The notes under the pieces: generated by a model | The model's input: the letters and a program-made list of their open reading frames with translations, nothing else | Databases searched by the model: none | What the model was told of the DNA's origin: nothing | Made by a program: the position numbers and the translations under genes | Part shown: positions 3,770 through 62,703 of the stretch, one piece after another | How positions within the stretch are numbered: the first letter of the stretch is position 1 | Layout: each line of letters begins with the position of its first letter | Assembly (NCBI GenBank): GCA_036504215.1 | Contig: DASXVO010000016.1 | Span: 1 to 64,000 of the forward strand | Source of the DNA: Vicinamibacterales bacterium | GTDB lineage: Bacteria > Acidobacteriota > Vicinamibacteria > Vicinamibacterales > Fen-181 | Reading direction: 5' to 3' | DNA length: 64,000 nt

Positions 3770-4534
3770 ATGCAGCCGCCCACTCTCGTGCTCGTCGTGC
3801 CGTGCTACCAGGAAGCCGCCAGGCTGCGCGCGCCGGCGTTTCTCGATTTCAGCGCGAGCCATCCGAACGTCTCCCTGCTCTTCGTGGACGACGGGAGCAC
3901 CGACGAGACGTGGGCGGCGCTGCAGCGCATCGTGAGTGTCGCGCCAGACCGGATCGCCGCGATCCGGCTCGAGTCCAATCGCGGCAAGGCCGAGGCCGTC
4001 CGGGTCGGCACGATCGAGGCGATTGCCCGGCGGCCGACGCTGGTGGGCTTCTGGGACGCGGACCTCGCCACGCCGCTCGACGCGGTGGACGACTTTCTCG
4101 CGGTGACCGCAACCCGCCCGGACATCGAGATCGTCCTGGGGTCGCGCGTGATGCTCATGGGGCGGACCATCGCGCGAACGACGCTTCGTCACTACCTCGG
4201 ACGCGTGTTCGCGACGGCCGCCTCCCTCTCGCTCGACCTTCCCGTCTACGACACCCAGTGCGGCGCCAAGGTATTTCGCGCCACCGACGCGGTCGCCGGC
4301 CTGTTCGCCACACCGTTCAAGAGCACGTGGACGTTCGATGTCGAGCTCCTCGCGCGCTATCTGAACACCCCGGCGGAGGACGGACGCCCCATCCGCCAGG
4401 CGCGCATCTACGAACTGACGCTACGGACCTGGCACGACATCCCGCGATCGAAGCTTCGCCTGGCGGACGGCGTCCGGTCGATGATCGAACTGATGGCAAT
4501 CTGGCGCGCCCGCCGCGCTGGCCGGGCCGCCTGA
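3770..4534 (+). CDS. GT2 glycosyltransferase, polyprenyl-phosphate sugar synthase (DPM1/GtrB-like)
   Basis: VLVVPCYQEA...LLFVDDGSTDET...ESNRGKAEA...DADL...TQCGAKVF motifs typical of dolichyl/undecaprenyl-phosphate glycosyltransferases. 254 aa with a GAGG RBS. Confidence 0.7.
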   Translation: MQPPTLVLVVPCYQEAARLRAPAFLDFSASHPNVSLLFVDDGSTDETWAALQRIVSVAPDRIAAIRLESNRGKAEAVRVGTIEAIARRPTLVGFWDADLATPLDAVDDFLAVTATRPDIEIVLGSRVMLMGRTIARTTLRHYLGRVFATAASLSLDLPVYDTQCGAKVFRATDAVAGLFATPFKSTWTFDVELLARYLNTPAEDGRPIRQARIYELTLRTWHDIPRSKLRLADGVRSMIELMAIWRARRAGRAA

Positions 4535-4651: not shown

Positions 4652-5425
4652 ATGATGACCATTCTGGCTGCGACCGCGATTGGACTTCTCGCCGTAGCCG
4701 CGTCTGCCCAGACGAACCGACGGCTCGACGAGCTTCGCAAGTGGGCGGTCCACGACGAAACGCGCCCGATGCCCCCGGTGGTCGATCCGGGACCCGCCGG
4801 CGGCCCTGGCCCCGTGCCCGCGGACGCGATCGTCCTGTTCGACGGCCGCGACACCTCAGGGTGGACGACGGCGAACGGGACACCGGCCACCTGGCTCGTG
4901 CGCGACGGCTACATGGAGGTCGTCAAGAAGTCGGGGTCGATCCGCACGAAGCGTGGGTTCGGCGATTGCCAACTCCACGTGGAGTGGGCCGCTCCCGCGG
5001 CAGCAATCGGCACGGGGCAGGATCGGGGCAACAGCGGCGTATTCCTGATGGACACGTACGAGGTCCAGGTCCTCGACTCCTACGATAGTAAAACGTACGC
5101 GGACGGCATGGTGGCCGCCATCTACGGGCAATACCCACCGCTCGTCAATGCCAGCCGGAAGCCGGGCGAATGGCAGACCTACGACATCGTGTTTCACGCC
5201 CCGCGCTTCGACGGCAGCGGCGCGCTGCAATCGCCGGCTCGCATGACGGTCTTGCACAACGGCATCCTCGTCCAGGACAACGAAGAGCTGACCGGCCCGA
5301 CGGCGCACAAGGCGCGTCCTCCCTACAAGGCGCACGCGGACAGACTGCCGATCTCGCTTCAGGACCACAGCCACCCCGTCCGCTACCGGAACATCTGGAT
5401 ACGGGAACTGGACGGAGGGCGGTAA
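4652..5425 (+). CDS. DUF1080 (3-keto-disaccharide hydrolase / LamG-like) secreted protein
   Basis: Signal peptide [20 protein letters not shown]. Conserved C-terminal block [19 protein letters not shown] characteristic of PF06439. The track ORF begins at a GTG at 4637; the first ATG is 4652. Confidence 0.6.
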
Positions 5426-5508
5426 GGCAGGATCCGGGGGCCAGGACTGTAAGTACTGGGGGTCAGCGGATCCGGGATCGCGGGTCTGGGGTCGATGCGG
5501 AGCAACCC

Positions 5509-6327
5509 ATGAAGGCACATTCCGTCGTGCGGCGTTCGGCGATCGTCGTGTCCCTGCTCGCCGCCGGCTTGCTCATAATGGGAGCCGCCGCACCTGCGCA
5601 GAATCCCCTGCCAAAGAAGAAGGTGCTCATCGTATGGGGCGGATGGGAGGGCCACGAACCAAAGCAGTGCGTGGACCTCTTCGCTCCCTGGCTGGCCGAA
5701 CAGGGCTTCGACGTCGAGATCTCGCACTCGCTCGATTCGTACAGTGACGCGGCGAAGATGAAGGGCCTCGCACTCATCGTGCAGGCGGTCACGATGGGAC
5801 AGCTCGCGGCTGAACAGCAGAAGGGCCTGCTCGATGCCGTCCGTGGCGGCGTCGGCATCGCCGGCTGGCACGGGGGACTGGCGGATTCCTTCCGCGCCAA
5901 CCCCGACTACCAGTTCATGATCGGCGGCGCGTGGGCGGCTCATCCGGGCGGGATCGTCGACTTCGCCGTCAACGTGACGAAGCGCCAAGACCCCATCGTG
6001 AAAGGCCTGGCAGATTTCCGGATGCACTCCGAGCAGTACTACATGCTCGTCGATCCGAACGTGGAGGTTGTCGCGACGACCACGTTCGGCGGGAAAGCCG
6101 CGGAGGCCGCGCCGTGGATCACCGGCGCCGTGATGCCGGTCGTCTGGAAGAAGCTGTATGGCCAGGGCCGAGTCTTCAACACGACGCTCGGACATTCCGC
6201 AGCCGACTTCAACGTGCCCGAGGCACGCGAGATCGTCAAGCGCGGGCTGCTCTGGGCTGCGCGGATGCCGGGCGCCGGCGACGATCCGCAACCCACGAAC
6301 CCGTATCGTCTCGAGGTCAGAAAGTGA
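5509..6327 (+). CDS. ThuA-like (trehalose utilisation / type-1 glutamine-amidotransferase-like fold) protein, secreted
   Basis: Signal peptide [31 protein letters not shown] followed by a ThuA domain ([15 protein letters not shown]...GIAGWHGG...TTLGH). The track ORF (5170..) carries a 113-codon GC-rich spurious extension. Confidence 0.6.
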
Positions 6328-7879
6328 GCCCCTGCCGCTTCACGAGAAACCGATCCCACAGCGATCGCTCGATGTAGACCGTCAGCAGCACGCCGGGCCG
6401 CAGGCCGTAGAACTCCGATACGTACCGCTCCCCGAGGGCGGCGTCGATCACGGCGGCATGGGCCTGTGACGCCACGATGACCGGGGCGCCGGCGAGCGGT
6501 TCCGCGTCGGCCGCCCGCGTCCAGTAACCGACACGTGCCATGCCACGCAGGTACCAGGGCAGCGGCCACTGCTCGTAGGGACCAGCGATCACCTCAATCA
6601 ACATCCGCTGCCGCTCGGGATGAAGAGCGGCCAGGTCGGTGACCCGCTGCACCAGGCGGAGGAAGTCGGGGCTCGTCTGGGCGTAGGCGTACGGATTCCG
6701 CGGGTCCGCCGGATACCGGAAGTTGGCGTGCCAGTCCTGGAGCGCCAGATGGCAGGTGGCGGCCAGGAACACCACGATGATGAGGCTCCGCAGGCCCCGT
6801 GTTTGTACGGTCCCGAGGATGGCGGTTGCGCCGTATCCGGCCATCGCGACGAGACCGACATAGAAGGGCAAGACGTTCCACGGCGTCTTGTAGGGAATCG
6901 CGGAGAACGCGAGCGCGGTGATCCACGAGTACAGGCAGATGTACCGAGGCCAGAACCGTCCGTGCACGTCGTTTCTGAACGCGAAGATGGAGCCGGCGAT
7001 CGCGAGAAGCAGGACCAGCGCCTCGGTCCAGACCAGGCCCCCCGACGCTGCGAACCAAAGCAGACGCAGGTAATAGTCCGACGGCTCGGCGTGCGATCCC
7101 GCGCCAAGCCCGCGATCCGCGTAGATGGAGAACGCTCGAATGGATTCGAGGAGCCCGGCGGGATGTCGAAGCAGCGACGAGTACAACACGAGAGCGATCG
7201 CTAGCGCCGCCGCGCATCCCAGTGCGAAGTGCGCGAGGCGCTTCCCCGGTGTGACGCCGGCTGTTCCGATTGCCGCACCCGTTCCAGCAGTCGCGGCCCG
7301 CGCCACCGCGCACGATACGAGCGCGGTGGCGAAGACGATGACCGAGGTCTCCTTGGTCGCATACGCCAGGCCGGCGAAGACTCCCGCGGCCGCGGCCCAT
7401 CCGGCACGGCCTCGCTCCGCACAGCGCCCAACCGCGATCAGAAACGCGACCGCGAAGAACGCCAACAGCGATTCCTGGATGTAGTAGCGGCTGTAGTAGG
7501 TCAGGACGGGCGAGACCGCGACCAGTACGGCGCTCGTTGCCACACTTCCGCGCCCGAGCGGTGCGGCCAGGAGCGGCAGCAGCAGGATCACTCCGGCGCC
7601 AAAGAGGGCCGGCACGAGCCTGAGCGTGCGCTCGTCGAGCGAGGCCAGCGTCGTCTGGCCGCGTGCCCATGCGACTGGCAGCGTGAGGTAGTACAGCGAC
7701 GGGCCGTGATGATCGTTCCGGTCGTACCGATACTCGCCGGTCTCGAGCAGCGTGCCGAACTTGACGGCCTGGTTGGCCTCGTCATGGTGCATCGGCCGTG
7801 CGTCCGGCCAGGCCAGGCGGAACGCCAGCGCGAGGGCCACCGCGGCCGTCAGCACGACCCAGAATCGAAGCCTGCTCAT
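6317..7879 (-). CDS. GT-C fold membrane glycosyltransferase (ArnT/PMT GT39-like; TIGR03663-like family)
   Basis: 520 aa with at least 10 predicted TM helices. A DE motif (PMHHDEANQ) lies in the first extracytoplasmic loop, as in ArnT/PMT. The start ATG overlaps the stop of the upstream discoidin gene (ATGA). Confidence 0.55.
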
Positions 7880-8550
7880 GAGAGCGGCGTGCCGTACACC
7901 TCCACCTCGACGTAGTGGTTCAAGTCGTTCGTCGTGTTGCCGCTCGAGTAGAACCGGACGTACCGGCCCCTGGCCCCCTTCGGATCGAAGAGGCGGCCCT
8001 CGCTCGTCTCGATGTACTCCTTGTTGCGGCCGACGCCGAGACCGGACGTGTTGTCATGGTCGTTGTTGAAGACCGTGGTCACGCCCTTGAGGAAGTCCTT
8101 GTCGTCGGACACCTGGACGACGACATCCCGATAGACACGTGCCTGGCTGTGGTAGTGCCAGGCCAGGATGGCGTGGAGCGCGCAGGACGCGCCGAGGTCG
8201 ATCTGAATCCACTGCTTGCCCGGCCCCAGCTCGACGAAATAGCCGTCGCCGCCGTCCTTCTCGCCGTCGGTCACCATGCTGAGCTCGCCGATGACCGGCT
8301 GCATGTCGCTCGACTTCACGGGCCGGTTGAGCGAGAGGAGCTTCGTCCCTTTCGGCACGTAGAAGGGCTCCCGCGGCTTGCCGGTCACCACCTCGAGGTT
8401 CGCGCTCTTGATGTTCGTCGGCGTCCCGATGAACATCGGTTTGGGCAGCTGCAGCTTCAGCTCTTCCTTGTCGGGTGCCGCCTGCCGGGCAGCGAGCGGC
8501 ACGAGCAGGAGACCGAAGAGCGCCGCGAACGCCAGGATGTGCTTGTTCAC
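7876..8550 (-). CDS. Small secreted discoidin (F5/8 type C)-like domain protein
   Basis: GTG start preceded by GGTGAGGA. Signal peptide (VNKHILAFAALFGLLLVPLAA). C-terminal beta-sandwich-like block GYFVELGPGKQWIQIDLG...RYVRFY...YVEVEVYG. Confidence 0.45.
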   Translation of the reverse strand: MNKHILAFAALFGLLLVPLAARQAAPDKEELKLQLPKPMFIGTPTNIKSANLEVVTGKPREPFYVPKGTKLLSLNRPVKSSDMQPVIGELSMVTDGEKDGGDGYFVELGPGKQWIQIDLGASCALHAILAWHYHSQARVYRDVVVQVSDDKDFLKGVTTVFNNDHDNTSGLGVGRNKEYIETSEGRLFDPKGARGRYVRFYSSGNTTNDLNHYVEVEVYGTPLS

Positions 8551-8558
8551 CGTTGTCC

Positions 8559-9548
8559 TCACCGTTTCATGTCCTTGTCGAAGGCGACGTCGGACGGTGC
8601 GAAGTTGATCCCGCGCACGAAGTCCAGCGACTCGCGCGCGCCGAACTCGCGGTCCATGCCGTTGTCCTCCCACTCGACCGACAGCGGCCCGGCGTAGCCG
8701 GCGGCGTTGAGTTCGCGGATGATCTCTTCGAAGTTGACGTCGCCGTGGCCGAGTGACCGGAAGTTCCACCCGCGCCGCAGGTCGCCGAACGGCAGGTGCG
8801 AGCCGAGGATGCCGGCCCGGCCGTCGAGCGTCACGCCGACATCCTTCATGTGTACGTGATAGACCCTCGACGCGAACGCGCGGATGAAGAGCTGCGGCTC
8901 GAGCCCCTGCCACACGAGGTGGCTCGGATCGAAGTTGAATCCGAGCGTGGGCCTGTCGTCGAACTTCCGCACGAGGCGTTCGGCGGTGTAGAAGTCGAAT
9001 GCAATCTCCGTCGGGTGGACCTCGAGGGCGAACCGCACGGCACGCCGATCGAACTCGTCGAGCAGCGGCGTCCAGAGTCCGTGAATCTCCTCGAACGCCG
9101 CCTCCACCATCTCTTCGGTCGTCGGCGGGAACGCGTACCAGGCGTGCCAGATCGGCGATCCCATGAACCCCGTCACCACGTGGCACCCCATCGCCTCGGC
9201 CGCGCGCGCAGTGGCCACCATCTCCTCGGACGCCCACCGACGAAGCGCCTCGGGCTTCCCTCTCGTGTCGGCCGGTGCGAACGCCATCAACCGCTCGTCG
9301 TAGCGATCGCCGACGCACTGCCCCGCCAGGTGCGCGCCGAGCGCCCAGCACCCGAGCTTGTGCCTCTCGAGAAGCCTGCGCTTCTCCCTCGCATAGGCCG
9401 GATCGGTCGCGGCCTTGCGGACGTCCATGTGGTCTCCCCAGCAGGCGATCTCCAGGCCGTCGTAGCCCCACGCCGAGGCCTTGCGGCAGATCTCCTCGAA
9501 CGGCAGGTCGGCCCACTGGCCGGTGAACAAGGTGACGGGTCTGCTCAT
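8559..9548 (-). CDS. Sugar phosphate isomerase/epimerase (xylose-isomerase-like TIM barrel), cytoplasmic
   Basis: AP_endonuc_2/TIM-barrel pattern (GYDGLEI...HVHMKD...EWED). No signal peptide. Start set at the internal ATG (MSRPVTLF); the track ORF has a 27-codon extension. Confidence 0.65.
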   Translation of the reverse strand: MSRPVTLFTGQWADLPFEEICRKASAWGYDGLEIACWGDHMDVRKAATDPAYAREKRRLLERHKLGCWALGAHLAGQCVGDRYDERLMAFAPADTRGKPEALRRWASEEMVATARAAEAMGCHVVTGFMGSPIWHAWYAFPPTTEEMVEAAFEEIHGLWTPLLDEFDRRAVRFALEVHPTEIAFDFYTAERLVRKFDDRPTLGFNFDPSHLVWQGLEPQLFIRAFASRVYHVHMKDVGVTLDGRAGILGSHLPFGDLRRGWNFRSLGHGDVNFEEIIRELNAAGYAGPLSVEWEDNGMDREFGARESLDFVRGINFAPSDVAFDKDMKR

Positions 9549-9583
9549 GCTGTGCTCCCAGGGCCTCCACCGAGGCCGGCGGT

Positions 9584-10759
9584 TCAGAACCTGACCCAGG
9601 CGGCGCCCTTTCGCGAGCTGGCGACGCATGCTTCGATGAATCTCACGCCGCGGATGCCCTCGTCCACACCCGGGAAATCCAGGTCTTCAGGCGCCAGCGG
9701 CTGGCCGGCGTTCTTCTTGATCAGCGCGCTCACGAACGCGAGGTAGATGTTGGCGAATGCCTCGAAGTAACCTTCGGGATGGCCCGCCGGAACCCGCGAC
9801 ATCCGCTGCGCGGCGGGATGCAGGGTGTCGCGGCCGCGCGACAGCCGCACGGTGGGCTTCCCCAGGTACGCCACCTCGCAATAGTTCGGATTCTCCTGCG
9901 ACCACTCGAGCGACCCCTTGGTCCCGTAGATCCGCACGCGAAGACCATTGTCCCTGCCGATGGCCACCTGGGACGCCCAGTAGAGTCCCTTCGCGCCGCC
10001 CTTGTACTCCACCAGGATGGATGCGTTGTCGTCCAGTGCGCGGCCGGCGACGAAGCGGTCGAGGCGTGCGAGCAGCGTGCGGATTTCGAGTCCGGTGATG
10101 TGCGTGACCATGTTCTCGATGTGGCTGCCGATGTCACCCACGCAGTTGGAGATCCCACTCCGACGCGGGTTGGCTCTCCAAGCCGCCTGCTTCTGGCCAG
10201 TGCGCTCGAGCGGCGTCGCCAGCCACTCCTGCGGATACTCCGCGGCCACGAAGCGAATGTCGCCGAGTTCGCCTTGCGCGACCATCTCGCGCATGTGCCG
10301 AACGATGGGATATCCCGTGTAGGTGTAGGTGACCCCGAACAGCAGCTTCGCCCGCTTCGCCAAAACGCCGAGCGCCCGAGCGTCGGCACTCGAGGTGGCG
10401 AGCGGCTTGTCGCACACCACGTGGATGCCGTGCTCGAGGGCGAGCTTCGCAATCGGAGCGTGCAGATAGTTGGGCGTCACGATGACCAGGAAATCGATCC
10501 CGTCCACTCGCTTCGCCTCCGCGCGGATCATCGTGCGGTAGTTCTTGTACAGCCGATCCGGCGCCAGGCCCAACGACCCGCCCGTCTCGAGCGTATTCTC
10601 GTAGTCTGCGGAGAAGCAACCCGCGGCGAGGTCGGCCAGACCGTCGAACGCGATGGCCTGCCGGTGCACGCTGCCGATGAAGGCGCCCCGCCCGCCGCCC
10701 ACCATGCCGTACCGAATCCTGCCGCCAGTGGCTGCCGCTGCCCGTCCTTCAATGGTCAT
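9584..10759 (-). CDS. Gfo/Idh/MocA family oxidoreductase, cytoplasmic
   Basis: N-terminal Rossmann region IRYGMVGGGRGAFIG...HVVCDKP and C-terminal GFO_IDH_MocA_C-like domain. No signal peptide. Confidence 0.75.
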   Translation of the reverse strand: MTIEGRAAAATGGRIRYGMVGGGRGAFIGSVHRQAIAFDGLADLAAGCFSADYENTLETGGSLGLAPDRLYKNYRTMIRAEAKRVDGIDFLVIVTPNYLHAPIAKLALEHGIHVVCDKPLATSSADARALGVLAKRAKLLFGVTYTYTGYPIVRHMREMVAQGELGDIRFVAAEYPQEWLATPLERTGQKQAAWRANPRRSGISNCVGDIGSHIENMVTHITGLEIRTLLARLDRFVAGRALDDNASILVEYKGGAKGLYWASQVAIGRDNGLRVRIYGTKGSLEWSQENPNYCEVAYLGKPTVRLSRGRDTLHPAAQRMSRVPAGHPEGYFEAFANIYLAFVSALIKKNAGQPLAPEDLDFPGVDEGIRGVRFIEACVASSRKGAAWVRF

Positions 10760-10766
10760 GATCGCC

Positions 10767-12767
10767 TCACGACTCGTTCTTCTTCATGCGTGTCCTGATC
10801 TTCTCGATGGCGGCCTCAGCCTCGGCCTTCACCGACGGTTCGCGCAGGAAGCTCGCAGCAAGGTCCAGCGCCTCCCCGCAGGGAAACTGCGTCAGCGCCC
10901 CGAGCACGAGCTTCTGCTCCTCCGGCCGCCACGCAAAACCCGCAGCCGATCTCAGGTCAGCGACAGCCGCCTCAGGATCCCGGTAATTGTCCAGTCCGAC
11001 GGTACGGACCAGGCCATGGATAGCCAGCAGGCGGTGGGTCTCGTTCCGGGAGTCCCGCGCCAGGCGGAAGATGTCGTCGCGCGCGGCGCCCGTCGGCCAC
11101 GCCGTCAGCGCACGCACCGCGGCGTCATACACCTCCGGATCGGCGTCGCCGAGCGCCCCTCTCACCACCGGCAACGCGCTGGCCTGACCAATCAACGGGA
11201 GCACGGCAATGAGTCGCCCCTTGGCCTTGGGATCCTTCTCCGCCGCCAGGCGGGTCGTCACCGCCCTCGACTGGTCGTTGGCGTTCGCCATCTTCCGCGC
11301 GAGGACGCCAACCGTCGTTTCCGCTTCCGACAACTCGCGGCCATCGTCGGCTCGGAGCAGCATTTCGAGCACCGCAGGAACGTCAGACGGCGTACCGATC
11401 ACGCGCAAGGATCTGAGCGCCTGCACCCTCACCCCGGTCGACGGCGAGCCGAGCGCGGCGACCACGACGCGCTCGGCGACGAACATCTGCCGGTCGGCCG
11501 CCGCCAACAGCAGTGCCCTCTCGACATCTTCGGTCGGCTTCGTCCCGAGCAACGAGAGGATCTCTTCGTCGACGGCACGGCCGGTCAGCCTTCCGAGCGC
11601 GGAACGGGCCGCCCCCTGTTCGGGGCCGCGGGCCTTCGCGGACTTGTCCAACAGGAATCGCACGACTGTGGCGTCGCCCGCCGCAGCCAGCGCGTTGGTC
11701 GAGGCGATTCGGACCATTGTCGAATCGCTTCGCGCGGCGAGAAGGACCGTCGGGAGCACCCGTTCTCTCGGGTAGGCGGCCAGCACGCTCAGCAACCGAA
11801 GCTGCAACGGCTCCGGAAGGCGAGGCAGGAGCGAACAGATTGGCTGGATCGTGTCGGGCGCCACCACGTCCCTGATCTTCGTGATGGCCGCTTCCTGGAG
11901 GCCGGGATCGGATCCACTGAGCAGGTCCATGAGGACCGCTGCTCCACGCGGCCCGCTGGTCGAAATCCTGCCGATGGCGATGGCTCGACGCAGTGGACCA
12001 GGCAGCGACGCGTCAGCCCAGAGCGTGTCGTACAGCCGCAGGGCGGCCGCGTCGTTCTTCGCCGCCGCAAAGGACTCCGCGCACGTCATCACGGCCGATG
12101 CAAACACCGGCTTGAGATCCGGACGTGCGATCGCGAATGCAGCCGTGAGCGCCTGCGCGGCCGCGTCTCCGCCGATGGCGCCCAGCGCAAAGACAGTCGC
12201 CCGGGCGAACTCGGCCTGCGCGAGCAGCGGAGCAAGCGCGGGGACCGCGTCCGCGTCCCGCCGTACTCCGATTGTCGAGATGACGGCAAGCCTCGCCGGG
12301 CCTGTCGACGTCGTCAGCGCCTGCACGAGCGCACGGCCAGCCACGCTGCCTGGGATCTGCCGCAGCACGTAGAGCGCCATGTCCACGGATCGCTCGTCCT
12401 TCAGCAACGCCTGCAGCGCAGGCACGGCGCTGTCGCCGGCGATCAGTCGCAGGTGACGGCAGGCGGCCATCCTGGCGACCGGCGTCGCCGGCGTCTTGAG
12501 AAACGCGAGCAGTCTTACTTCGCATTCCGCGCGCCCTGCGGGATCGTTCATCCGGGCGTGGACGTAGTCGCGGAGCTTCCACAGCGCGGCCGACTCGATG
12601 CTTCCCTGGTAGGAGGACACCTCCCGAAGGATCGCGTCGAGAGACTCGGCGGCCACAGACGCCTGCGCCCACAAAGCGCGATCGGCTCCCAGCAGAAGGC
12701 CGATCGCGATGAGGAGCACGCCGCAGGCCTTGGATGCGCGTGCCGGGGGCAAGGGGTGATGTGTCAT
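10767..12767 (-). CDS. Secreted HEAT/PBS-lyase repeat protein
   Basis: Signal peptide (MTHHPLPPARASKACGVLLIAIGLLLGADRALWAQA) then about 600 aa of repeating alpha-helical units (AVPAL..LL.D....VR..A..AL). GAGGTG RBS. The track ORF has a 211-codon spurious extension. Confidence 0.55.
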   Translation of the reverse strand: MTHHPLPPARASKACGVLLIAIGLLLGADRALWAQASVAAESLDAILREVSSYQGSIESAALWKLRDYVHARMNDPAGRAECEVRLLAFLKTPATPVARMAACRHLRLIAGDSAVPALQALLKDERSVDMALYVLRQIPGSVAGRALVQALTTSTGPARLAVISTIGVRRDADAVPALAPLLAQAEFARATVFALGAIGGDAAAQALTAAFAIARPDLKPVFASAVMTCAESFAAAKNDAAALRLYDTLWADASLPGPLRRAIAIGRISTSGPRGAAVLMDLLSGSDPGLQEAAITKIRDVVAPDTIQPICSLLPRLPEPLQLRLLSVLAAYPRERVLPTVLLAARSDSTMVRIASTNALAAAGDATVVRFLLDKSAKARGPEQGAARSALGRLTGRAVDEEILSLLGTKPTEDVERALLLAAADRQMFVAERVVVAALGSPSTGVRVQALRSLRVIGTPSDVPAVLEMLLRADDGRELSEAETTVGVLARKMANANDQSRAVTTRLAAEKDPKAKGRLIAVLPLIGQASALPVVRGALGDADPEVYDAAVRALTAWPTGAARDDIFRLARDSRNETHRLLAIHGLVRTVGLDNYRDPEAAVADLRSAAGFAWRPEEQKLVLGALTQFPCGEALDLAASFLREPSVKAEAEAAIEKIRTRMKKNES

Positions 12768-12781
12768 CGTTGCACCTCGGA

Positions 12782-14104
12782 TCACGCGGGAACCTGGTAC
12801 GGCTTCCGGTAGGATCGCGACAGCAGCCGCTCCGCGCCGGCGTCGCCAATCAGCGTCTCGGTGGCAGGGTCCCATTTGATCTTCCTGCCCGTTTCGATCG
12901 CGATCACGCCCAGGTGTCCGACGCTCGCGGACCGGTGCGCGACCTCGGCGGGCGCGATGGTCAGCGCGCCGCTCCTGATGCAGTCGAGGAAGTTCTGCTG
13001 GTGATCGCGGCTGTGGTACAACCGAGTCTCGTTCGGTCCGATGACCTCGTTGACCAGGTGCGCAGGCTGGCTCTCGAATCCGCCCCGGTCCACCCACACC
13101 CAACCGCGCTCGCCAATCCACTTCGTCCCGCTCTGGATTTCCGGGTAGCCGCCAGCCAGGATGATCGGTGTCCCGTCCGCGTAGAGCGTATCGACCCAGT
13201 ACCGGGTCGGACTGTTGTAGATGCCGGTTGTCGGGAACTCGGCCCGGCCCGAGACCTCGACGGGCCCGGTGTGATCGAGACCCAGCGCCCAGTGCGCGAT
13301 GTCGAGGTGGTGGCCGACCCAGTCCATCAACTGGCCACCGCCGAAGTCCATGTTCCAGCGCCAGTTCATGTGCACGCGCGCCCTGCAATACGGCGACCAT
13401 GGAGCGGGACCCAACCAGGTGTCGTAGTCGAATCCGGACGGAGGGTTCTCGAGCTTCTCCTGCCCAAATGTGCCGGCGAAGTCGTGGTGGCCCGACGGAA
13501 GCCCCACCTCAACTCGCTGAACCCTGCCGATTCGCCCGTTGCGGACCAGTTCGCACGCGCGGTGGAAGTTCTCGACCGACCGCTGCCAACTGCCCGTCTG
13601 CCACACGCGGCCGTACCGTTCGACCGCGTCGCAAAGCGCGCGTCCTTCGCGCAGGCTGTGCGTGAACGGCTTCTCGCCGAACACGTGCAGGCCGGCCCTG
13701 AGCGCCTCGATCGACAGGATTGCGTGCCAGTGGTCGGGAACGGCGATCGACACCGCGTCGAGGTCGCCGCGCGCGTACAGCTTCCGGTAGTCCTTGTAGA
13801 CCGCGCAGTCAGCCGTGCCGTACGCGGTGTTGACGGTCTCCTGCGCCTTTCGCAGCGGGCCGTCGTCGAGGTCGCAGACCGCCACCCATTGGACCTCGTT
13901 CTTGCCGAGAAACGAGCGCATGTTGGACGGCCCCTGCATGCCGAACCCGATGCCGGCCATGACGATGCGGTCGCTGGGCGGAGTGACTCCGTGGCGGCCC
14001 AGCACTGACGCCTCGACGATCGTCGGAAATGCCGCGGCACCGGCGATTGCCACGGGTGCCTGCTTCAGGAATTCCCGGCGGGAACACGAAGAGTGCTTGT
14101 TCAT
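12782..14104 (-). CDS. Gfo/Idh/MocA family oxidoreductase with twin-arginine (TAT) signal
   Basis: MNKHSSCSRREFLKQAPVAIAGAAAF TAT signal followed by a Gfo N-terminal Rossmann domain (IVMAGIGFGMQG...HVFGEKP). Ends 14 nt upstream of the HEAT protein start. Confidence 0.75.
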   Translation of the reverse strand: MNKHSSCSRREFLKQAPVAIAGAAAFPTIVEASVLGRHGVTPPSDRIVMAGIGFGMQGPSNMRSFLGKNEVQWVAVCDLDDGPLRKAQETVNTAYGTADCAVYKDYRKLYARGDLDAVSIAVPDHWHAILSIEALRAGLHVFGEKPFTHSLREGRALCDAVERYGRVWQTGSWQRSVENFHRACELVRNGRIGRVQRVEVGLPSGHHDFAGTFGQEKLENPPSGFDYDTWLGPAPWSPYCRARVHMNWRWNMDFGGGQLMDWVGHHLDIAHWALGLDHTGPVEVSGRAEFPTTGIYNSPTRYWVDTLYADGTPIILAGGYPEIQSGTKWIGERGWVWVDRGGFESQPAHLVNEVIGPNETRLYHSRDHQQNFLDCIRSGALTIAPAEVAHRSASVGHLGVIAIETGRKIKWDPATETLIGDAGAERLLSRSYRKPYQVPA

Positions 14105-14269
14105 CGCATCCTTTCCAGGGACATCTGCCGCGGTCGAACATGCCGCCAGGGATGCAACTTCCTGTGTCGGGCGTGGAAGCTGTCCTATAATGCGCGCGAT
14201 TCTACAACAGGCGTTGGCCGGGCGAATAGGAATGTGCCTGGCGCACCGGCAACCCGAGGAGCGACGACC

Positions 14270-15136
14270 ATGAACCGAAGCCGCGATCTGACACGCCGAT
14301 CGTTTCTTGGAATGGCCGGCGCCGTGCCGCTGGCCTGGGGACTGGCGAACGCGTCGACGGCTGCGGAGGCCGGCAGGCTCCCGATTGCCCTTCAGCTCTA
14401 CTCGGTCCGCCGTGACTGCCAGCAGGACTTCGACGGCGCGCTCGAGCAGGTCGCGGCCATGGGCTTCGAGGGCGTGGAGTTCGCCGGCTACTTCGGCTAC
14501 GCGGACAGGGCGCGCGAGTTGAAGGCGAGGCTCCAGTCCCTCGGGCTGAAGGTGGCGGGCACGCACATCGGCCTCGACACGCTGCAGAACGACGCGCTGA
14601 AGCGGACGATCGACTTTCACCAAGCAATCGGTTGCCGTTTCCTGATCGTGCCAAGCAATCCGGCCTTCACGGACCCCGAGAAGAGCAAGGCCCTCGCCGA
14701 AACGTTCAATCTGTTGGCGGCCACGTTGAAGCCGCTCGGCATGGCCTGCGGTTTCCACAACCACAAGGCCGAGTTCCAGAAGGACGGCGCCAAGACCTAC
14801 TGGGACCTCTTCGCCGAGCGCACGAGCCAGGACGTCATCCTCCAGCAGGATTGCGGGTGGACGTGGGCGGCCGGCTTCGACCCAGTGGCCTACGTCCGGA
14901 AGTACCCCGGACGCACGAAGACGACCCACTTCAAACCGACCATCCGGCAGGACGACGCCGGAAAGAGAGCCATCCTCGGACAGGACTCGGTGGACTGGAA
15001 AGCCGTCTACGCGGCGTGCTCGTCGGTTGGCGGAACGGAGTGGGTTGTCGTGGAGCAGGAAACGTACCCGGACGGCAAGACGCCGATGCAGTGTACCCGG
15101 GAATCGCTCGCGGGCCTGAAGGCGCTGATCGGGTAG
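14270..15136 (+). CDS. Xylose-isomerase-like TIM-barrel protein (sugar phosphate isomerase/epimerase family) with TAT signal
   Basis: MNRSRDLTRRSFLGMAGAVPLAWGLANA TAT signal. TIM-barrel motifs (GFEGVEF...FHNH...VVEQE). GAGGAG RBS. Confidence 0.7.
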   Translation: MNRSRDLTRRSFLGMAGAVPLAWGLANASTAAEAGRLPIALQLYSVRRDCQQDFDGALEQVAAMGFEGVEFAGYFGYADRARELKARLQSLGLKVAGTHIGLDTLQNDALKRTIDFHQAIGCRFLIVPSNPAFTDPEKSKALAETFNLLAATLKPLGMACGFHNHKAEFQKDGAKTYWDLFAERTSQDVILQQDCGWTWAAGFDPVAYVRKYPGRTKTTHFKPTIRQDDAGKRAILGQDSVDWKAVYAACSSVGGTEWVVVEQETYPDGKTPMQCTRESLAGLKALIG

Positions 15137-16333
15137 ATGGAGGAGCCAATGGAAGCGACGGTAGCCCGTAGGACGTCCGTTCTCGCGTTGATGGCCGTGT
15201 TCGGTCTCGGCATCTCCTTCATCATCATTGGAGCGATCTCCGAGGAACTGAAGAGGGATCTCGGTGTGACGAACGCGGAGATCGGCAACCTGGTTCTCGC
15301 GCTGTTCCTCACGAGCGTGGTCGTGCAGCTCATCACCGGCCCGCTGGTGGACCGGTTCGGGCACAAGCCGCTGGCGATCGTCGGGTTCCTGGTCGCGAGC
15401 CTGAGCATGTTCCTGATCGGGCTGGCGCCGAACGTCGCCACGGCGTTCGTCGCGTGCATCCTGCTGGGCATCGGCGCCATGTGTCTGAACACCGTGGGCA
15501 ACACGCTCATCCCCGTGGTGCTCTTCGACGGCAAGGACCCGGCGCGCGCCAGCAACTTCGGCAACGCGTTCTTCGGCCTCGGCTACGTCATCACGCCGTT
15601 GCTGTTCTCGCTGATGGCCGGGGCGGGGCTCGGCTACAGGACCGGCGTCTACCTGCTCGGCGGGCTGTTCCTCGTCTTCCTGGTGGCCGCCGTCGGCTCG
15701 ACGTTCCCGCGCGTGTCCACCGGCTACGAGTTCTCGATGGCGTTCAAGTTGCTCGGCAAACGGGCGGTGCTCGTCGCCGCGCTCGCACTGTTCTGCTACA
15801 TCTCGCTCGAGATCAGCATGGCCACGTGGAGCAAGCCGTACATGACGGAGTTGTTCGGCGGGGCCGCGAATCCTGGGGCCGTGTCCAGGGCCGGGCTGAT
15901 CCTGAGCCTGTTTGGCGTGGCCATGATGGTCGGTCGCTTCCTGACATCGATGGTGAAGAACCTGACGACCATCGGCGTCAGACTGATCGCGGCGATGGCC
16001 CTGGTGGCGATGGGAGCCATCCTCACGATGATTCTCACAGAGATCCCGGCGCTGGCCGTCGTGGCCGTGGTTGTGACGGGCCTGGTCTTCGCGCCGATCT
16101 TCCCGACGATAGTCGGCGTGACGTTCGCCAAGTTCGAACCGAAACTCTACGGCAGCATTTTCGGGATCATCTTCGCCGTCGGGCTCCTCGGTGGCACGTT
16201 CGTGCCGCAGATCATCGGGAGCCTGAGCGTCGGCGCGACGATCCAACAGAGCCTCCTCATCGTGCTGGCGATGGCGGCGGCGCTGTTCGTGATCTCGCTG
16301 TTCCTCAGGTCGAGATCGGAGTCTGCCTCCTGA
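15137..16333 (+). CDS. MFS transporter (probable sugar transporter)
   Basis: 398 aa with 12 predicted TM helices. Starts 1 nt after the stop of the TIM-barrel gene. Confidence 0.7.
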   Translation: MEEPMEATVARRTSVLALMAVFGLGISFIIIGAISEELKRDLGVTNAEIGNLVLALFLTSVVVQLITGPLVDRFGHKPLAIVGFLVASLSMFLIGLAPNVATAFVACILLGIGAMCLNTVGNTLIPVVLFDGKDPARASNFGNAFFGLGYVITPLLFSLMAGAGLGYRTGVYLLGGLFLVFLVAAVGSTFPRVSTGYEFSMAFKLLGKRAVLVAALALFCYISLEISMATWSKPYMTELFGGAANPGAVSRAGLILSLFGVAMMVGRFLTSMVKNLTTIGVRLIAAMALVAMGAILTMILTEIPALAVVAVVVTGLVFAPIFPTIVGVTFAKFEPKLYGSIFGIIFAVGLLGGTFVPQIIGSLSVGATIQQSLLIVLAMAAALFVISLFLRSRSESAS

Positions 16334-16400: not shown

Positions 16401-17816
16401 CTAGAACGTCCAGCCGCTGCGGTAGTGGTGCTGGACCAAGTCGTTCGCTTCCGGGTGGTTCGTGACCGTCATCCTGGGACCGTCCCACACGAGCTTGACT
16501 CCGGGGAACGCGACACCGAGATTGCCGAGCAGCACGGCCTCGGTGAACGGACCGGCGTAGTTGAAATCCGAGACGGCCTTCGTCTTGCCCTTGATCGCGT
16601 CAATCCAGTTCTGCTCGTGGCTGCCGACTACTCGCGCGATCGACTTGCGCGGGCGCTTGTAGGCCTGCATGCGCCGCTCGGGAATCAACCGCGGGCTGCC
16701 CGAGTACGTCTCGCACATCAGCTTCCCCTTGTCGCCAACGAAGATCGTCCCGCTCTCGGGCAACGTACGATCCGGTTCCAGTTCCTCCGGACGTTCGGGA
16801 AGCAGGCCTCCGTCGTACCAGTGAAGCTTCACGGCAGGGTACTTCTTGCCGCGGTCCGGGAAGGTGTAGTGGACGATCGTCGCCGGAGGATAGCTGTCCT
16901 TGTACTGCAGCCTCACGTTCGACGTCCCGCCGCCCTCGCGCGGGACCTCGATGACCTGGTAGGCAAGAAACGCGGTCACGCTGGTCGGATATCCGAGTTT
17001 CAACGCGGTGTAGGCGGCATCCATGACGTGACACGCCATGTCGCCGAGGGCGCCGCACCCGAAGTCCAGCCACGAGCGCCAACTGAACGGGTGATAGGCC
17101 TTGTGGTATGCCCGAAGCGGCGCCGGTCCGAGCCAAAGGTCCCAATCGAGACCGTCGGGCACCGCCGGTGTGTCGGTCGGCCTTGGCATGCCCTGCGGCC
17201 AGATCGGTCGATTCGTCCAACAGTGCACCTCGCGGACCTTGCCAATCGCGCCATCGGCAATCCATTCCTCGATGAGCCGCACGCCCTCGCCCGAGTGCCC
17301 CTGGTTCCCCATCTGGGTGACGACCTTGTACCGACGCGCGGCCTCGGTCAGCGCCCGCGCTTCCGACACGGTCCGCGTCAGTGGTTTCTGGACGTAGACG
17401 TGCTTGCCCAACTGCATGGCGGCGATCGCGATGACGGCGTGGCTGTGGTCGGGAGTGGCGACGATGATCCCGTCGATGTCCTTCTGCTTCTCCAGCATCA
17501 CGCGGTAGTCGCGGTACCTGGTGGCGTTCGGAAACTCCTCGAACACCTTCGTACGAGCAGCCCGGACGCGTGCCGCGTCGCTGTCGTCCACGTCACAGAG
17601 CGCGACGACGTTCTCCGCGGCACACGCCTTGGTGTTGGCCGTCCCCATGCCGTGGACGTACCCGACCGTCGCGATGTTCACGCGGTCGCTCGGCGCCTGG
17701 TACCCGGGCCCGCCCAGCACGTGGCGCGGCACGATCATGAATCCGGCGGCGGCCGCCATGCCTCCCACGAACCTGCGACGCGAGATCCCGTTCGCGAGCG
17801 TGTTCTGATCGTCCAT
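16401..17816 (-). CDS. Gfo/Idh/MocA family oxidoreductase with TAT signal
   Basis: SRRRFVGGMAAAAGFMIV TAT signal. Gfo Rossmann domain (VNIATVGYVHGMG...HVYVQKP). 471 aa. Confidence 0.75.
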   Translation of the reverse strand: MDDQNTLANGISRRRFVGGMAAAAGFMIVPRHVLGGPGYQAPSDRVNIATVGYVHGMGTANTKACAAENVVALCDVDDSDAARVRAARTKVFEEFPNATRYRDYRVMLEKQKDIDGIIVATPDHSHAVIAIAAMQLGKHVYVQKPLTRTVSEARALTEAARRYKVVTQMGNQGHSGEGVRLIEEWIADGAIGKVREVHCWTNRPIWPQGMPRPTDTPAVPDGLDWDLWLGPAPLRAYHKAYHPFSWRSWLDFGCGALGDMACHVMDAAYTALKLGYPTSVTAFLAYQVIEVPREGGGTSNVRLQYKDSYPPATIVHYTFPDRGKKYPAVKLHWYDGGLLPERPEELEPDRTLPESGTIFVGDKGKLMCETYSGSPRLIPERRMQAYKRPRKSIARVVGSHEQNWIDAIKGKTKAVSDFNYAGPFTEAVLLGNLGVAFPGVKLVWDGPRMTVTNHPEANDLVQHHYRSGWTF

Positions 17817-21043: not shown

Positions 21044-21096
21044 CGTGAACCCGGCGTCGCGTGCCCACCGCCCGATGCCGGATGCCGCATTCCGGC

Positions 21097-32262: not shown

Positions 32263-32523
32263 TTGCACACACAACGGAGACGCAGCCAACGTTTCGGTAA
32301 TCGGCAGGCCTGTTCGAGCGCTTGAACGCCCGTAATCGAGGGTGGGTCGGGCCGCACGCCCGACGCTTCCCATCCGAGGACCAGCAGAGGCGCGGCCGGG
32401 TGGACTCCACCCGCCTCGTCCGATAGGATCGGCGGCACGAGACATCACACGGGCCACCGGGGACCGGTCGTTCAACCCAGCCACGTCCGATGCTCAACCG
32501 TGAGCGCGGCGGAGGAGGTTACC

Positions 32524-45793: not shown

Positions 45794-45878
45794 CGACGCG
45801 CCTCCATTGGTTCGAGCCACCCTCGCATGCCCGGCCCCTCTGCGCCACGCCTGTTCCCGGGCCGCTCCGCCTCTACTT

Positions 45879-47381: not shown

Positions 47382-47419
47382 GCGATTCGGACTCCAGGAA
47401 CCCAAACCCAATCTTGACA

Positions 47420-47432
47420 CGACGGCCCGTCG
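47420..47432. promoter_or_regulatory. Perfect 6-1-6 palindrome (cgacgg-c-ccgtcg) in the uxaE-like/gntR divergent region; candidate operator
   Basis: Seen in the sequence immediately downstream of a TTGACA hexamer (47414-47419) and upstream of the GntR-family regulator start. Confidence 0.2.
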
Positions 47433-47448
47433 CTGTTAGTGATGTCTC

Positions 47449-48276: not shown

Positions 48277-48303
48277 GCAGCCGCCCGCCGATCGGGCGGC
48301 CCG

Positions 48304-62644: not shown

Positions 62645-62703
62645 CGTCTATAGTTTCCGTGACCGCGCGCAGGTTCAGCGCAGCGGATACCTGGAGGAGG
62701 CTC

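Follow-up and report, generated by a model that had tools for sequence, protein, structure and literature searches.

A 64,000-nucleotide stretch of DNA from a Vicinamibacterales bacterium (Acidobacteriota; Vicinamibacteria; Fen-181; GenBank assembly GCA_036504215.1, contig DASXVO010000016.1, positions 1 to 64,000 of the forward strand), hereafter called the window, appears to hold between 3.8 and 22.4 kb a conserved acidobacterial gene neighbourhood for the oxidative, non-hydrolytic cleavage of glycosides, a process that would run from the periplasm into the cytoplasm and be linked to a membrane electron-transfer module. Judged from the sequence, we place the probability of this reading at about 60%. 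The sequence of oxidation, beta-elimination and hydration has recently been recognised as a broad-specificity alternative to glycosidases and is known mainly from work on gut Bacteroidota and on Agrobacterium; for each enzyme type of this route the window encodes relatives, the majority of them exported. A first-pass annotation of the same DNA had described a complete enzyme toolkit for cleavage through 3-keto-glycosides between positions 4652 and 15136. Relatives of every enzyme type are indeed present, most are exported and comparative genomics links them to one another, but the dehydrogenase named in that description (12782-14104) is not the expected type, and its proper counterpart lies outside those coordinates, at 16401-17816.

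The gut version of the route is the AL/BT pathway described by Nasseri et al. (10.1101/2024.03.25.586180), in which AL/BT3 is a protein of the Gfo/Idh/MocA family (Gfo) that is exported by twin-arginine translocation (TAT), carries tightly bound NAD and oxidises the sugar at C3; the TIM-barrel protein AL/BT1 is a 3-keto-beta-glucoside lyase, the DUF1080 protein AL/BT2 has 3-keto-alpha-glucoside lyase and glycal hydratase activities, and AL/BT4 is a cytosolic Gfo. The operon of Agrobacterium encodes GlycDH, AtOGE, AtHYD and a Gfo that reduces 3-keto-glucose (Bitter et al. 2023, PMC10628242).

With a guanine-cytosine (GC) content of 67%, the window yields raw lists of open reading frames that consist mostly of shadow frames, and genes were therefore called from the GC content of the third codon position. 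All 41 called genes were scanned with Pfam. The genes of interest are listed below by coordinates and strand; in the text, Gfo and TIM-barrel proteins are named by family and first coordinate (for example Gfo16401).

3770..4534, + strand: GT2 glycosyltransferase (PF00535, E 1.7e-13), upstream of the DUF1080 and ThuA genes
4652..5425, + strand: exported DUF1080 protein of the 4QHZ subfamily (PF06439, E 1.2e-45; Sec signal)
5509..6327, + strand: exported stand-alone ThuA-domain protein (PF06283, E 1e-44, profile positions 1-209 of 209)
6317..7879, - strand: PMT_2/Agl23-like polytopic membrane protein, last gene of a six-gene operon (PF13231, E 3.5e-9)
7876..8562, - strand: secreted F5/8-type-C (F5/8C, galactose-binding-like) protein (weak PF22633/PF00754; signal peptide)
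8559..9548, - strand: cytoplasmic xylose-isomerase-like TIM barrel (PF01261, E 1.7e-39)
9584..10759, - strand: cytoplasmic Gfo/Idh/MocA protein (PF01408/PF02894/PF22725)
10767..12767, - strand: exported HEAT-repeat protein of 666 aa (PF13646, E 1e-25; signal peptide)
12782..14104, - strand: TAT-exported Gfo/Idh/MocA protein, first gene of the six-gene operon (PF01408 and PF19051)
14270..15136, + strand: TAT-exported TIM barrel (PF01261, E 3.9e-16)
15137..16333, + strand: major facilitator superfamily (MFS) transporter (PF07690, E 2.8e-32; about 12 transmembrane segments)
16401..17816, - strand: TAT-exported Gfo, candidate AL3/BT2158 type, last gene of the cytochrome operon (NF058561, 519 bits)
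17832..18692, - strand: ApbE-family protein (FAD:protein FMN transferase family; PF02424, E 9e-32), no signal peptide
18689..21100, - strand: predicted seven-haem c-type cytochrome with a C-terminal b561-related domain of five transmembrane helices (PF14522; haem motifs)
21097..22446, - strand: TAT-exported Gfo of an uncharacterised clade (PF01408/PF22725/PF02894), with a 4-bp overlap into the start of the cytochrome gene
62659..64000, + strand: fifth TAT-exported Gfo, cut by the window end (PF01408; NF058561, 154 bits)

Gene spacing divides the neighbourhood into four transcription units. GT2, DUF1080 and ThuA form the first (+ strand); Gfo12782, HEAT, Gfo9584, TIM8559, F5/8C and PMT_2 the second (- strand, gaps of -4 to 35 bp); TIM14270 and MFS the third (+ strand, gap of 0 bp), which is divergent from the six-gene unit headed by Gfo12782; and Gfo21097, cytochrome, ApbE and Gfo16401 the fourth (- strand, gaps of -4, -4 and 15 bp). 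Twin-arginine motifs stand at the N-termini of Gfo12782 (SRREFLK), TIM14270 (TRRSFLG), Gfo16401 (SRRRF), Gfo21097 (DRRDFLK) and Gfo62659 (SRREFLK), and Sec-type signals at those of the DUF1080, ThuA, HEAT and F5/8C proteins, with an RR pair in the ThuA signal peptide that leaves a TAT signal open for this protein. On inspection of their N-termini, TIM8559 and Gfo9584 have no signal peptide. Much of the first-pass annotation is upheld at this level, since Pfam confirms the DUF1080, ThuA, two TIM-barrel and Gfo12782 domains it had proposed, the N-termini bear out the TAT export of Gfo12782 and TIM14270 and the cytoplasmic location of TIM8559, and the three more TAT-Gfo genes it counted elsewhere in the window (16401-17816, 21097-22446 and 62659 to beyond 64000) are real. 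Its inventory had gaps, having overlooked the Gfo at 9584-10759, the HEAT protein at 10767-12767, the MFS transporter at 15137-16333, ApbE at 17832-18692 and the cytochrome at 18689-21100, and with them the cytoplasmic half of the pathway (TIM8559 with Gfo9584), the MFS gene abutting the TAT-TIM gene, and the cytochrome/ApbE module went unrecognised.

The best candidate in the window for a glycoside 3-dehydrogenase of the AL3/BT2158 type is Gfo16401. This protein aligned over residues 38-457 with PDB entries 8TDF/8TDH (E 1e-103) and scored 519 bits on NCBIfam model NF058561 ('BT_2158 family glycoside 3-dehydrogenase'; E 9e-156, profile positions 1-437 of 487). After the 8TDF sequence had been rebuilt from this alignment, the six published AL3 residues that contact NAD and sugar (Gln161, Arg192, Trp195, Asp248, His252 and Tyr349) mapped at a constant offset of 29, so that 8TDF can be equated with AL3, and 6/6 were kept in Gfo16401; the remaining entries of the 8TDF series were identified from their molecule names. 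Orthologues of Gfo16401 follow ApbE in loci L083-88 and L097 and precede DUF1080-ThuA in L112. Gfo12782, which has orthologues at 65-84% identity in 80 Acidobacteriota genomes, is by its sequence not an AL3-type enzyme: its NF058561 score was 168 bits and covered the N-terminal half only, its alignment to AL3 reached E 4e-32, and it retains 2/6 of the contact residues, namely just the family-wide Asp/His pair. Gfo62659 and Gfo21097 scored 154 and 71 bits on the same model, and for Gfo21097 the PDB matches were generic only and the best NCBIfam match was IolG at 80 bits. Several other assignments were considered and rejected. For the myo-inositol enzymes IolG and IolE, the best scores in the window were 80 bits against a cut-off of 355 (TIGR04380) and 59 bits against 290 (TIGR04379), respectively; for levoglucosan dehydrogenase (NF052479, LevoglcsnDh) the best was 102 bits (Gfo9584) against 650; and matches to UDP-GlcNAc 3-dehydrogenase and GH109 lay far under the curated cut-offs or had weak E-values. 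Directly upstream of Gfo62659, a gene at 59204-62569 encodes a protein with a CarboxypepD_reg domain and an outer-membrane beta-barrel (PF25183, E 3e-193), and the two may form a pair for outer-membrane uptake and periplasmic oxidation.

The elimination step has an equally specific candidate. TIM14270 matched the AL1/BT1 structures 8TCD, 8TCS and 8TCT at about E 1e-18 (identity about 25-30%) and AtOGE (8BVK) at E 2.5e-15, and in these alignments every metal-binding and catalytic position of the lyases is conserved, including the substrate His (idfHqa), the H-x-H motif (HnH), D-x-x-W, a third His and E-x-E. We therefore regard it as a candidate exported 3-keto-glycoside 1,2-lyase of the AL1/BT1/AtOGE type. 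The start codon of the MFS gene abuts the TIM14270 stop codon, and the TIM-MFS pair is kept in L001, L009 and L015; the transporter is thus a candidate importer of the released sugar product. On the cytoplasmic side, TIM8559 aligned over nearly its full length with 8RO4 ('2-hydroxy-3-keto-glucal hydratase', E 3.9e-44) as well as with the uncharacterised Streptomyces protein 2ZDS (E 6e-107), and is a candidate AtHYD-like 2-hydroxy-3-keto-glycal hydratase. The Gfo9584 gene lies 35 bp upstream of it on the same strand, and wherever an orthologue of TIM8559 was found it followed an orthologue of Gfo9584. Gfo9584 itself, which matched PDB entry 3V5N (E 7e-120) and is 51% identical to an Azospirillum Gfo encoded beside an AtHYD-like TIM, a sugar ABC importer and a ROK regulator, is a candidate cytoplasmic 3-keto-sugar reductase. 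As to the clustering with inosose dehydratases that the first-pass annotation had named as the danger to its proposal, the TIM barrels scored 44-59 bits on IolE models with a cut-off of 290, their best PDB matches were lyase and hydratase structures, and the catalytic residues were conserved, all of which speaks for its original assignment. AtHYD-like cytoplasmic TIMs also adjoin sugar importers in Azospirillum lipoferum p2 (L118) and Pantoea (L119) and occur on a plasmid of Gemmatirosa (Gemmatimonadota; L120); a Gfo9584-like partner was seen in Azospirillum and Gemmatirosa, not in Pantoea, and the rest of the cluster is absent from L118-L120. Given the Gemmatirosa plasmid, which carries just the cytoplasmic Gfo-TIM pair, this pair looks like a portable, general salvage module and is not diagnostic of the whole system.

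To what extent these genes belong together was assessed in three independent sets of loci. Set A comprised 80 genome loci centred on Gfo12782 orthologues (65-84% identity, from Vicinamibacterales to Aminicenantes), of which the 43 with at least 9.5 kb of downstream sequence were used for counts; set B took in cytochrome homologues (35-71% identity) and their surroundings in 29 metagenome loci (46-69% GC); and set C comprised loci around ThuA orthologues. The HEAT gene adjoined the Gfo12782 orthologue in 43/43 set A loci, and orthologues of TIM8559 were present in 28, of Gfo9584 in 27, of Gfo21097 in 12, of the cytochrome in 7 and of ApbE in 3. In Aminicenantes, at 41-50% GC, the genes form a single tight operon (TAT-Gfo, HEAT, Gfo, TIM, TAT-Gfo, cytochrome, small transmembrane protein, ApbE), and relatives at 49-53% GC keep the layout of the window, with DUF1080 and ThuA converging on PMT_2, F5/8C, TIM8559, Gfo9584 and HEAT. 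In set B, a Gfo21097-type gene stood directly upstream of the cytochrome in 23/24 loci having upstream sequence, and likewise in the distant locus L123; ApbE was found in 17 of the 29 loci, F5/8C in 13, PMT_2 in 12 and DUF1080 in 10, the DUF1080 gene lying directly upstream of a TAT-Gfo gene on the same strand in 5 of these 10. About 15 set B loci encode an AL3-like Gfo, some keeping 6/6 AL3 residues and others carrying variants. Separately, 35-37 Aminicenantes loci (L012-L073, e.g. L059:7610-9790) carry an extra TAT-TIM and a 416-aa TAT-Gfo directly upstream of the Gfo12782 orthologue; this extra TIM is hydroxypyruvate-isomerase-like (108 bits against a cut-off of 353), and the theme of an exported TIM with a Gfo thus recurs with different paralogues.

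The exported DUF1080, ThuA and HEAT proteins are tied to the dehydrogenases by both synteny and gene fusion. DUF1080 orthologues of 73-84% identity lie directly upstream of ThuA in L112, L114 and L117, and in L112, from an Aminicenantes metagenome-assembled genome, a single same-strand operon confirmed by Pfam runs Gfo, HEAT-DUF1080x2, AL3-type Gfo, DUF1080 and ThuA, with identities to the window of 49% for the AL3-type Gfo (compared with Gfo16401; 6/6 residues), 73% for DUF1080 and 75% for ThuA. The second gene of this operon (L112:1053-4454) encodes a 1133-aa fusion of HEAT repeats with two DUF1080 domains. A fusion of another kind, ThuA-HEAT, occurs directly after the Gfo12782 orthologue in L059 (11299-14178), L075 (1545-4442) and L030 (6846-9899), as proteins of 959-1017 aa with a signal peptide, a ThuA domain and HEAT repeats; when such a fusion was used as query, nearly all of the 120 best clusters carried both domains, down to 49% identity. 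The view from set A, that DUF1080 and ThuA are neighbours in close relatives only, was overturned by the ThuA- and cytochrome-centred loci and by these fusions. With gene order conserved across Acidobacteriota classes at 41-69% GC and two independent kinds of fusion, the clustering is beyond chance, and a functional link among DUF1080, ThuA, HEAT and TAT-Gfo proteins is firmly predicted.

What the three proteins do can be narrowed to different degrees. The DUF1080 protein, closest to the uncharacterised structural-genomics entry 4QHZ (E 1e-62), shows on inspection the family-wide GNSG, E-x-Q and Q-x-H motifs and is a candidate 3-keto-glycoside lyase/hydratase. ThuA is 52% identical to the cytoplasmic ThuA of Rhizobium sp. 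SL42, whose gene follows a Gfo gene; its invariant residues are His49, His121, Glu175 and His229, with no conserved Cys, so that it is not an amidotransferase. In the HEAT protein about 15 Arg residues are near-invariant, and His and Cys form no cluster. A redox role was considered for it and rejected, there being no CxxCH motif, no conserved His/Cys cluster and no haem domain in its 120 best homologues or in the 120 best ThuA-HEAT fusions; for this reason it was treated as a scaffold. The conserved Arg pattern fits a scaffold or ligand binder over a redox carrier, and the protein is probably a periplasmic scaffold.

The electron-transfer module consists of the cytochrome, its membrane domain and ApbE. 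The cytochrome contains one CxxxCH and six CxxCH motifs, the same number as the seven CxxCH motifs of its Aminicenantes orthologues, and its C-terminal 200 residues hold five transmembrane helices (segments within 611-793). In Aminicenantes this C-terminal domain is a separate small membrane protein, and in a distant member (L126) the cytochrome gene is followed by a prokaryotic cytochrome b561 gene (PF01292, E 2.8e-18) and then by ApbE; the window domain is homologous to the separate PF01292 subunits of L126 and L080. A profile built from 46 C-terminal domains, that of the window included, gave 92 bits with the L126 cytochrome b561 and 85-107 bits with the Aminicenantes proteins, and direct comparison of the window domain with the L126 protein gave 29-30 bits. 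On the strength of this profile homology the window protein is assigned as a seven-haem cytochrome c fused to a b561-type membrane domain, and this combination of a cytochrome c with a b561 partner is how modules in electron exchange with the quinone pool are built. The family forms a discrete group, with 348 clusters (50% identity) at E <= 1e-30 among 1.84 billion representatives. ApbE lies downstream of the cytochrome not only in the set B loci counted above but also in L123 and L126, and the distant member L123 keeps the order Gfo, cytochrome, ApbE and F5/8C. Another distant member (L124) shares its cluster with a GMC oxidoreductase, which is in keeping with an electron-transfer role.

Taken together, these proteins suggest the following route. 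TAT-Gfo enzymes carrying bound NAD(P) would oxidise the glycoside at C3, Gfo16401 being of the AL3/BT2158 type and Gfo12782 and Gfo21097 paralogues without an assigned specificity; acting on the 3-keto-glycoside, TIM14270 would eliminate its aglycone or next sugar, and the exported DUF1080 protein would probably contribute a complementary lyase or hydratase activity, while the HEAT protein may serve as the periplasmic scaffold that holds Gfo12782, ThuA and DUF1080. The MFS transporter, from the gene abutting that of the lyase, would bring in the keto-sugar or glycal product, which in the cytoplasm would be hydrated by TIM8559 and reduced to an ordinary sugar by Gfo9584. In the least certain step, electrons held on periplasmic Gfo would pass to the seven-haem cytochrome c/b561 fusion and from there to the quinone pool, and a flavin installed by ApbE may turn the hydride into single electrons.

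This last step bears on a question of the gut pathway, since Nasseri et al. left open how the bound NADH of AL/BT3 is re-oxidised, considering cytochromes possible and favouring recycling by 3-keto-glucose, and Liu et al. 2021 (PMC8121099), who called ThuAB and LacABC cytochrome-c-dependent, argued that B. thetaiotaomicron is unable to use cytochrome-c-dependent dehydrogenases. An aerobic soil acidobacterium would presumably be free of that constraint. Electrons run downhill from NADH (about -320 mV) to quinone but not back, and from these standard potentials we take NADH to quinone as the direction. Gfo21097, cytochrome/b561 and ApbE together are a candidate electron sink to the quinone pool. 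That at least one TAT-Gfo is linked to the cytochrome-b561 module seems to us an even bet; that the module re-oxidises the glycoside 3-dehydrogenase itself is a good deal more doubtful. Equally tentative is a fuller arrangement, in which a TAT-Gfo docked on the cytochrome, whose b561-type domain would reduce quinone, an ApbE flavin on some carrier and a HEAT-based metabolon with ThuA and DUF1080 would plug the NAD-loaded Gfo into the respiratory chain. If true, it would make periplasmic oxidative deglycosylation energy-conserving and independent of a sacrificial keto-sugar re-oxidant, and would represent a previously undescribed class of dehydrogenase:cytochrome complex, supplying the missing re-oxidation mechanism of the 'alternative' pathway. 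Should the link prove right, electrons from deglycosylation would enter the quinone pool, and the assumed energetics of the pathway would change.

Comparison with described systems brings out what is shared and what is particular to the window. Like the AL/BT pathway (BT2156-BT2160 of Bacteroides thetaiotaomicron, AL1-AL5 of Alistipes; Liu et al. 2021 and Nasseri et al.), it encodes a TAT-exported putative glycoside 3-dehydrogenase in Gfo16401 (E 1e-103 to AL3, 6/6 residues), an exported TIM barrel with the lyase constellation of His, His-x-His, Asp..Trp, His and Glu, an exported PF06439 protein and an additional cytoplasmic Gfo, and the periplasmic site of oxidation poses the same problem of re-oxidising bound NADH. 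The gut genes form one operon with a SusR/DUF6377-type regulator, whereas the window has four units and no DUF6377/SusR-like gene was found in it; its cytoplasmic Gfo is not of the BT2159 family and its DUF1080 is of another subfamily. The window also has components not described in the gut-system papers searched (HEAT, ThuA, an AtHYD-like hydratase, MFS, the cytochrome/b561 fusion, ApbE, F5/8C and the Agl23-like protein), and its host, unlike the gut hosts, is a soil acidobacterium with a presumably fuller respiratory chain.

With the Agrobacterium system (PMC10628242) the window shares the four-step logic of oxidation, beta-elimination, hydration and reduction. TIM14270 resembles AtOGE, and the two His residues targeted by mutation in AtOGE have His counterparts in TIM14270; TIM8559 resembles AtHYD, and the Gfo reductase gene adjoins the hydratase gene. 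The two systems differ in the oxidant, which in Agrobacterium is the FAD-dependent GMC-type GlycDH with a TAT hitch-hiker subunit and in the window would be an NAD-type TAT-Gfo, with no GMC_oxred domain found by Pfam in the 41 genes scanned. The window lyase is exported, a signal on AtOGE is not reported, and only about 25-33% of residues are identical.

ThuAB of Sinorhizobium and Agrobacterium is, according to the account given in PMC8121099 of Ampomah et al. 2013, a 3-dehydrogenase of trehalose and sucrose isomers. As with ThuAB, the PF06283 ThuA of the window has genomic ties to Gfo-family dehydrogenases and to sugar transport, but it has a signal peptide, which the Rhizobium homologue does not, and the gene beside it encodes DUF1080, not a Gfo. 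Its linkage and fusion to HEAT and its pairing with DUF1080 were not found in the ThuAB papers searched; in the literature searched, DUF1080 and ThuA appear together only in Liu et al. 2021 (PMC8121099) and its preprint. The LacABC and glucoside 3-dehydrogenase systems of Caulobacter, Agrobacterium and Halomonas (PMC9007349, PMC8121099) resemble the window in periplasmic formation of 3-keto-glycosides, a c-type cytochrome as acceptor and DUF1080 genes nearby; their dehydrogenase is an FAD enzyme of the GMC family in place of an NAD(P)-type Gfo/Idh/MocA, and the cytochrome of the window is unrelated to theirs, having seven haems and being fused to or followed by a b561-type subunit and ApbE. 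Finally, glucose-fructose oxidoreductase (GFOR) of Zymomonas mobilis (PMC8121099), whose structure 1H6A is among the PDB matches, belongs to the Gfo family and is exported by TAT with its NADP bound tightly and not exchanged, which makes it a precedent for cofactor-loaded export. GFOR recycles its cofactor between two sugars by a ping-pong mechanism with no protein acceptor, whereas in the window a cytochrome gene follows a TAT-Gfo gene with a 4-bp overlap. None of the literature searched ties Gfo-family enzymes to ApbE or to multihaem cytochromes.

Three further genes accompany the neighbourhood in other loci. The GT2 protein (3770-4534) shows weak similarity to polyprenyl-phosphate-sugar synthases, with weak NCBIfam matches only, and its homologues adjoin Gfo-cytochrome genes in L083, L085, L102, L103, L106, L110 and L124. 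The PMT_2/Agl23-like protein, with at least 9 transmembrane segments, exceeded the cut-off of NCBIfam TIGR03663 ('flippase-associated'; 178 bits against 126), which at the family level places it among GT-C or flippase-associated proteins, and it recurs beside ApbE, F5/8C and the cytochrome in distant loci. The F5/8C protein is among the most conserved of the neighbourhood (79-86% identity across relatives at 49-68% GC), and its gene follows ApbE in L058, L090-95 and L123.

A number of observations weigh against a glycoside-cleaving neighbourhood coupled to electron transfer. Its genes are spread over four transcription units instead of a single operon, and a search for a common operator or palindrome in the promoters of the four units and of the glycoside hydrolase (GH) genes found none, the shared elements being just sigma-70-like -10/-35 elements, so that there is no regulon evidence. 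No window protein reached the curated NCBIfam cut-off of a pathway family: Gfo16401 with its 519 bits falls below the 750 set for NF058561, which makes it a homologue and not an 'equivalog' by the NCBI criterion, and no window Gfo exceeded 21 bits on the BT2159-family model NF058563. Gfo21097, the type invariably coupled to the cytochrome, lacks the sugar-binding Arg, Trp and Tyr of AL3, and the Aminicenantes operon has no AL3-type Gfo. The DUF1080 protein, which the first-pass annotation had called a 3-keto-disaccharide-hydrolase-domain protein, does belong to PF06439; within it, its matches place it in a 4QHZ-type subfamily distinct from BT2157/AL2, the BT2/AL2 entries 8TDA/8TDE being matched at just E 0.08 over some 50 N-terminal residues (54-106). 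The ThuA protein had likewise been presented as the partner of a Gfo-type ThuB. Its PF06283 family membership stands; the window has no ThuB orthologue, a Rhizobium ThuB-like Gfo used as proxy query matching only Rossmann regions (E 2e-6 or weaker, at most 31% identity), so that the analogy is good at the family level only. In the electron-transfer module, the cytochrome homologues of L124/L125 and L127 stand beside FGE-sulfatase-domain proteins and not Gfo, the wider L124 cluster having PMT_2/STT3-like and GT2 genes, with a GMC oxidoreductase gene a few genes downstream, and L127 a sulfatase and GH129; with such partners in place of Gfo, the cytochrome looks like a generic module, a general acceptor or donor for several periplasmic redox enzymes. 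The passage of hydride from bound NADH to haem needs a mediator, yet ApbE scored just 35 bits on the NCBIfam ApbE equivalog and carries no signal peptide, either in the window or in three Aminicenantes orthologues, and the flavinylation motifs [S/T]GA[S/T] and D..[STA]G[AS][TS] are absent from all 20 proteins of the 1-28 kb region. The survey of flavinylation by Meheust et al. 2021 left out ApbEs that lack a signal and makes no mention of Gfo partners; extracytosolic systems of the kind it describes have an exported or lipidated ApbE and a nearby [S/T]GA[S/T] substrate, and this region shows neither.

Some of these points would fit a coincidence, in which the TAT-Gfo, TIM, DUF1080 and ThuA proteins act on unrelated substrates such as inositols or free monosaccharides and merely lie side by side in a paralogue-rich genome, genes of all these families being numerous in Acidobacteriota; the six Gfo genes in 64 kb share just 26-36% mutual identity, no regulatory motif unites the four units, the NCBIfam matches are all below cut-off and weak IolG/IolE-type matches exist. 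We consider this very unlikely in view of a gene order kept across 41-69% GC, with HEAT next to Gfo12782 and a TAT-Gfo before the cytochrome in nearly every locus counted, of the ThuA-HEAT and HEAT-DUF1080x2 fusions, which act as Rosetta stones, and of the active-site residues of Gfo16401 and TIM14270, which match those of glycoside-pathway enzymes. More weight, if still well short of a favoured explanation, goes to a periplasmic sugar or polyol dehydrogenase that feeds the respiratory chain in the manner of membrane-bound FAD- and PQQ (pyrroloquinoline quinone)-dependent sugar dehydrogenases and cleaves no glycoside, its TIM barrels being keto-sugar isomerases or epimerases of the YcjR or IolI kind. 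The AP_endonuc_2 superfamily takes in 3-keto-glycoside epimerases such as E. coli YcjR, and this counts in favour of such a dehydrogenase, as do the missing AL3 sugar subsite of Gfo21097, with IolG as its best NCBIfam match, and the Aminicenantes operons, in which there is no AL3-type Gfo and the exported TIM is hydroxypyruvate-isomerase-like. It fits poorly with TIM14270, which has the complete lyase constellation and lyases as its top structural-database matches, with TIM8559, whose nearest characterised protein is a glycal hydratase, and with Gfo16401, which keeps all AL3 contacts; DUF1080 genes also accompany the Gfo-cytochrome genes in 10/29 loci, and exported GH78, GH38, GH2 and GH88 proteins are encoded nearby.

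A purely catabolic model does not account for the conserved GT2, Agl23-like and F5/8C genes, and this too counts against it. Were the neighbourhood devoted to building or remodelling a glycoconjugate, GT2 would make a polyprenyl-phosphate sugar, the Agl23/PMT_2 protein would flip or transfer it, and the Gfo and TIM proteins would epimerise or otherwise modify it through 3-keto intermediates on a protein or glycan acceptor, for example F5/8C or the cytochrome. The three genes do travel with ApbE, cytochrome and Gfo in distant loci, the PMT_2/Agl23-like protein exceeds its TIGR03663 cut-off, and GT2 and GT39 genes were also present on the Alistipes fosmid carrying AL1-5 (Nasseri et al.). We nevertheless judge this improbable, because the module has no linked aminotransferase or nucleotide-sugar enzymes, a cytochrome coupled to quinone implies a net oxidation in keeping with catabolism, and the hydratase-reductase pair beside importers in Proteobacteria points to salvage of imported sugars; glycosylation of exported proteins could moreover be an accessory function compatible with oxidative glycoside cleavage. 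A dedicated pathway for levoglucosan (anhydrosugar) or C-glycosides, following the logic of LgdA/B1/B2/C or DgpA/B/C, would use the same chemistry of oxidation, elimination, hydration and reduction, and weak matches to the levoglucosan dehydrogenase model (Gfo9584) and to DgpA exist. Its chance appears slight: the former match lies far below its cut-off (102 against 650 bits), the DgpA matches cover the Rossmann domain only (E 1e-12 to 1e-16), a two-subunit C-glycoside lyase of the DgpB/C type was not detected in the Pfam or PDB results, and the known pathways are cytoplasmic while the system in the window is largely exported.

Oxidative glycoside cleavage coupled to a membrane module thus remains our preferred reading, and it would extend the route to abundant, mostly uncultured soil and sediment Acidobacteriota, which are major cyclers of environmental carbon. 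It would tie three 'orphan' families, the exported ThuA, the 4QHZ-type DUF1080 and the HEAT-repeat protein, to the pathway by fusion and synteny, and it offers a specific candidate for re-oxidation, TAT-Gfo with cytochrome c/b561 and ApbE, across hundreds of sequence clusters.

Classical hydrolases are also encoded in the window, as the first-pass annotation had reported, and GH78 (32500-35316), GH38 (39110-42628) and GH2 (53293/53392-55806) were all confirmed; GH88 and a polysaccharide lyase are present as well, and most of this set have signal peptides. The GH2 gene probably starts at 53293, not 53392, in which case its product begins with a twin-arginine signal (LTRRDLLK) and would be a TAT-exported classical glycosidase. 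The region 44657-52966 has the look of hexuronate or unsaturated-uronate catabolism, with GH88, the tagaturonate epimerase UxaE, a GntR regulator, a PfkB kinase, a 6-phosphogluconate dehydrogenase, a LarA_N-domain protein and a short-chain dehydrogenase/reductase. At 36421-38655, a 744-aa protein unites a PTA_PTB domain of the phosphotransacetylase type and part of an acetate-kinase-family domain, an unusual fusion.

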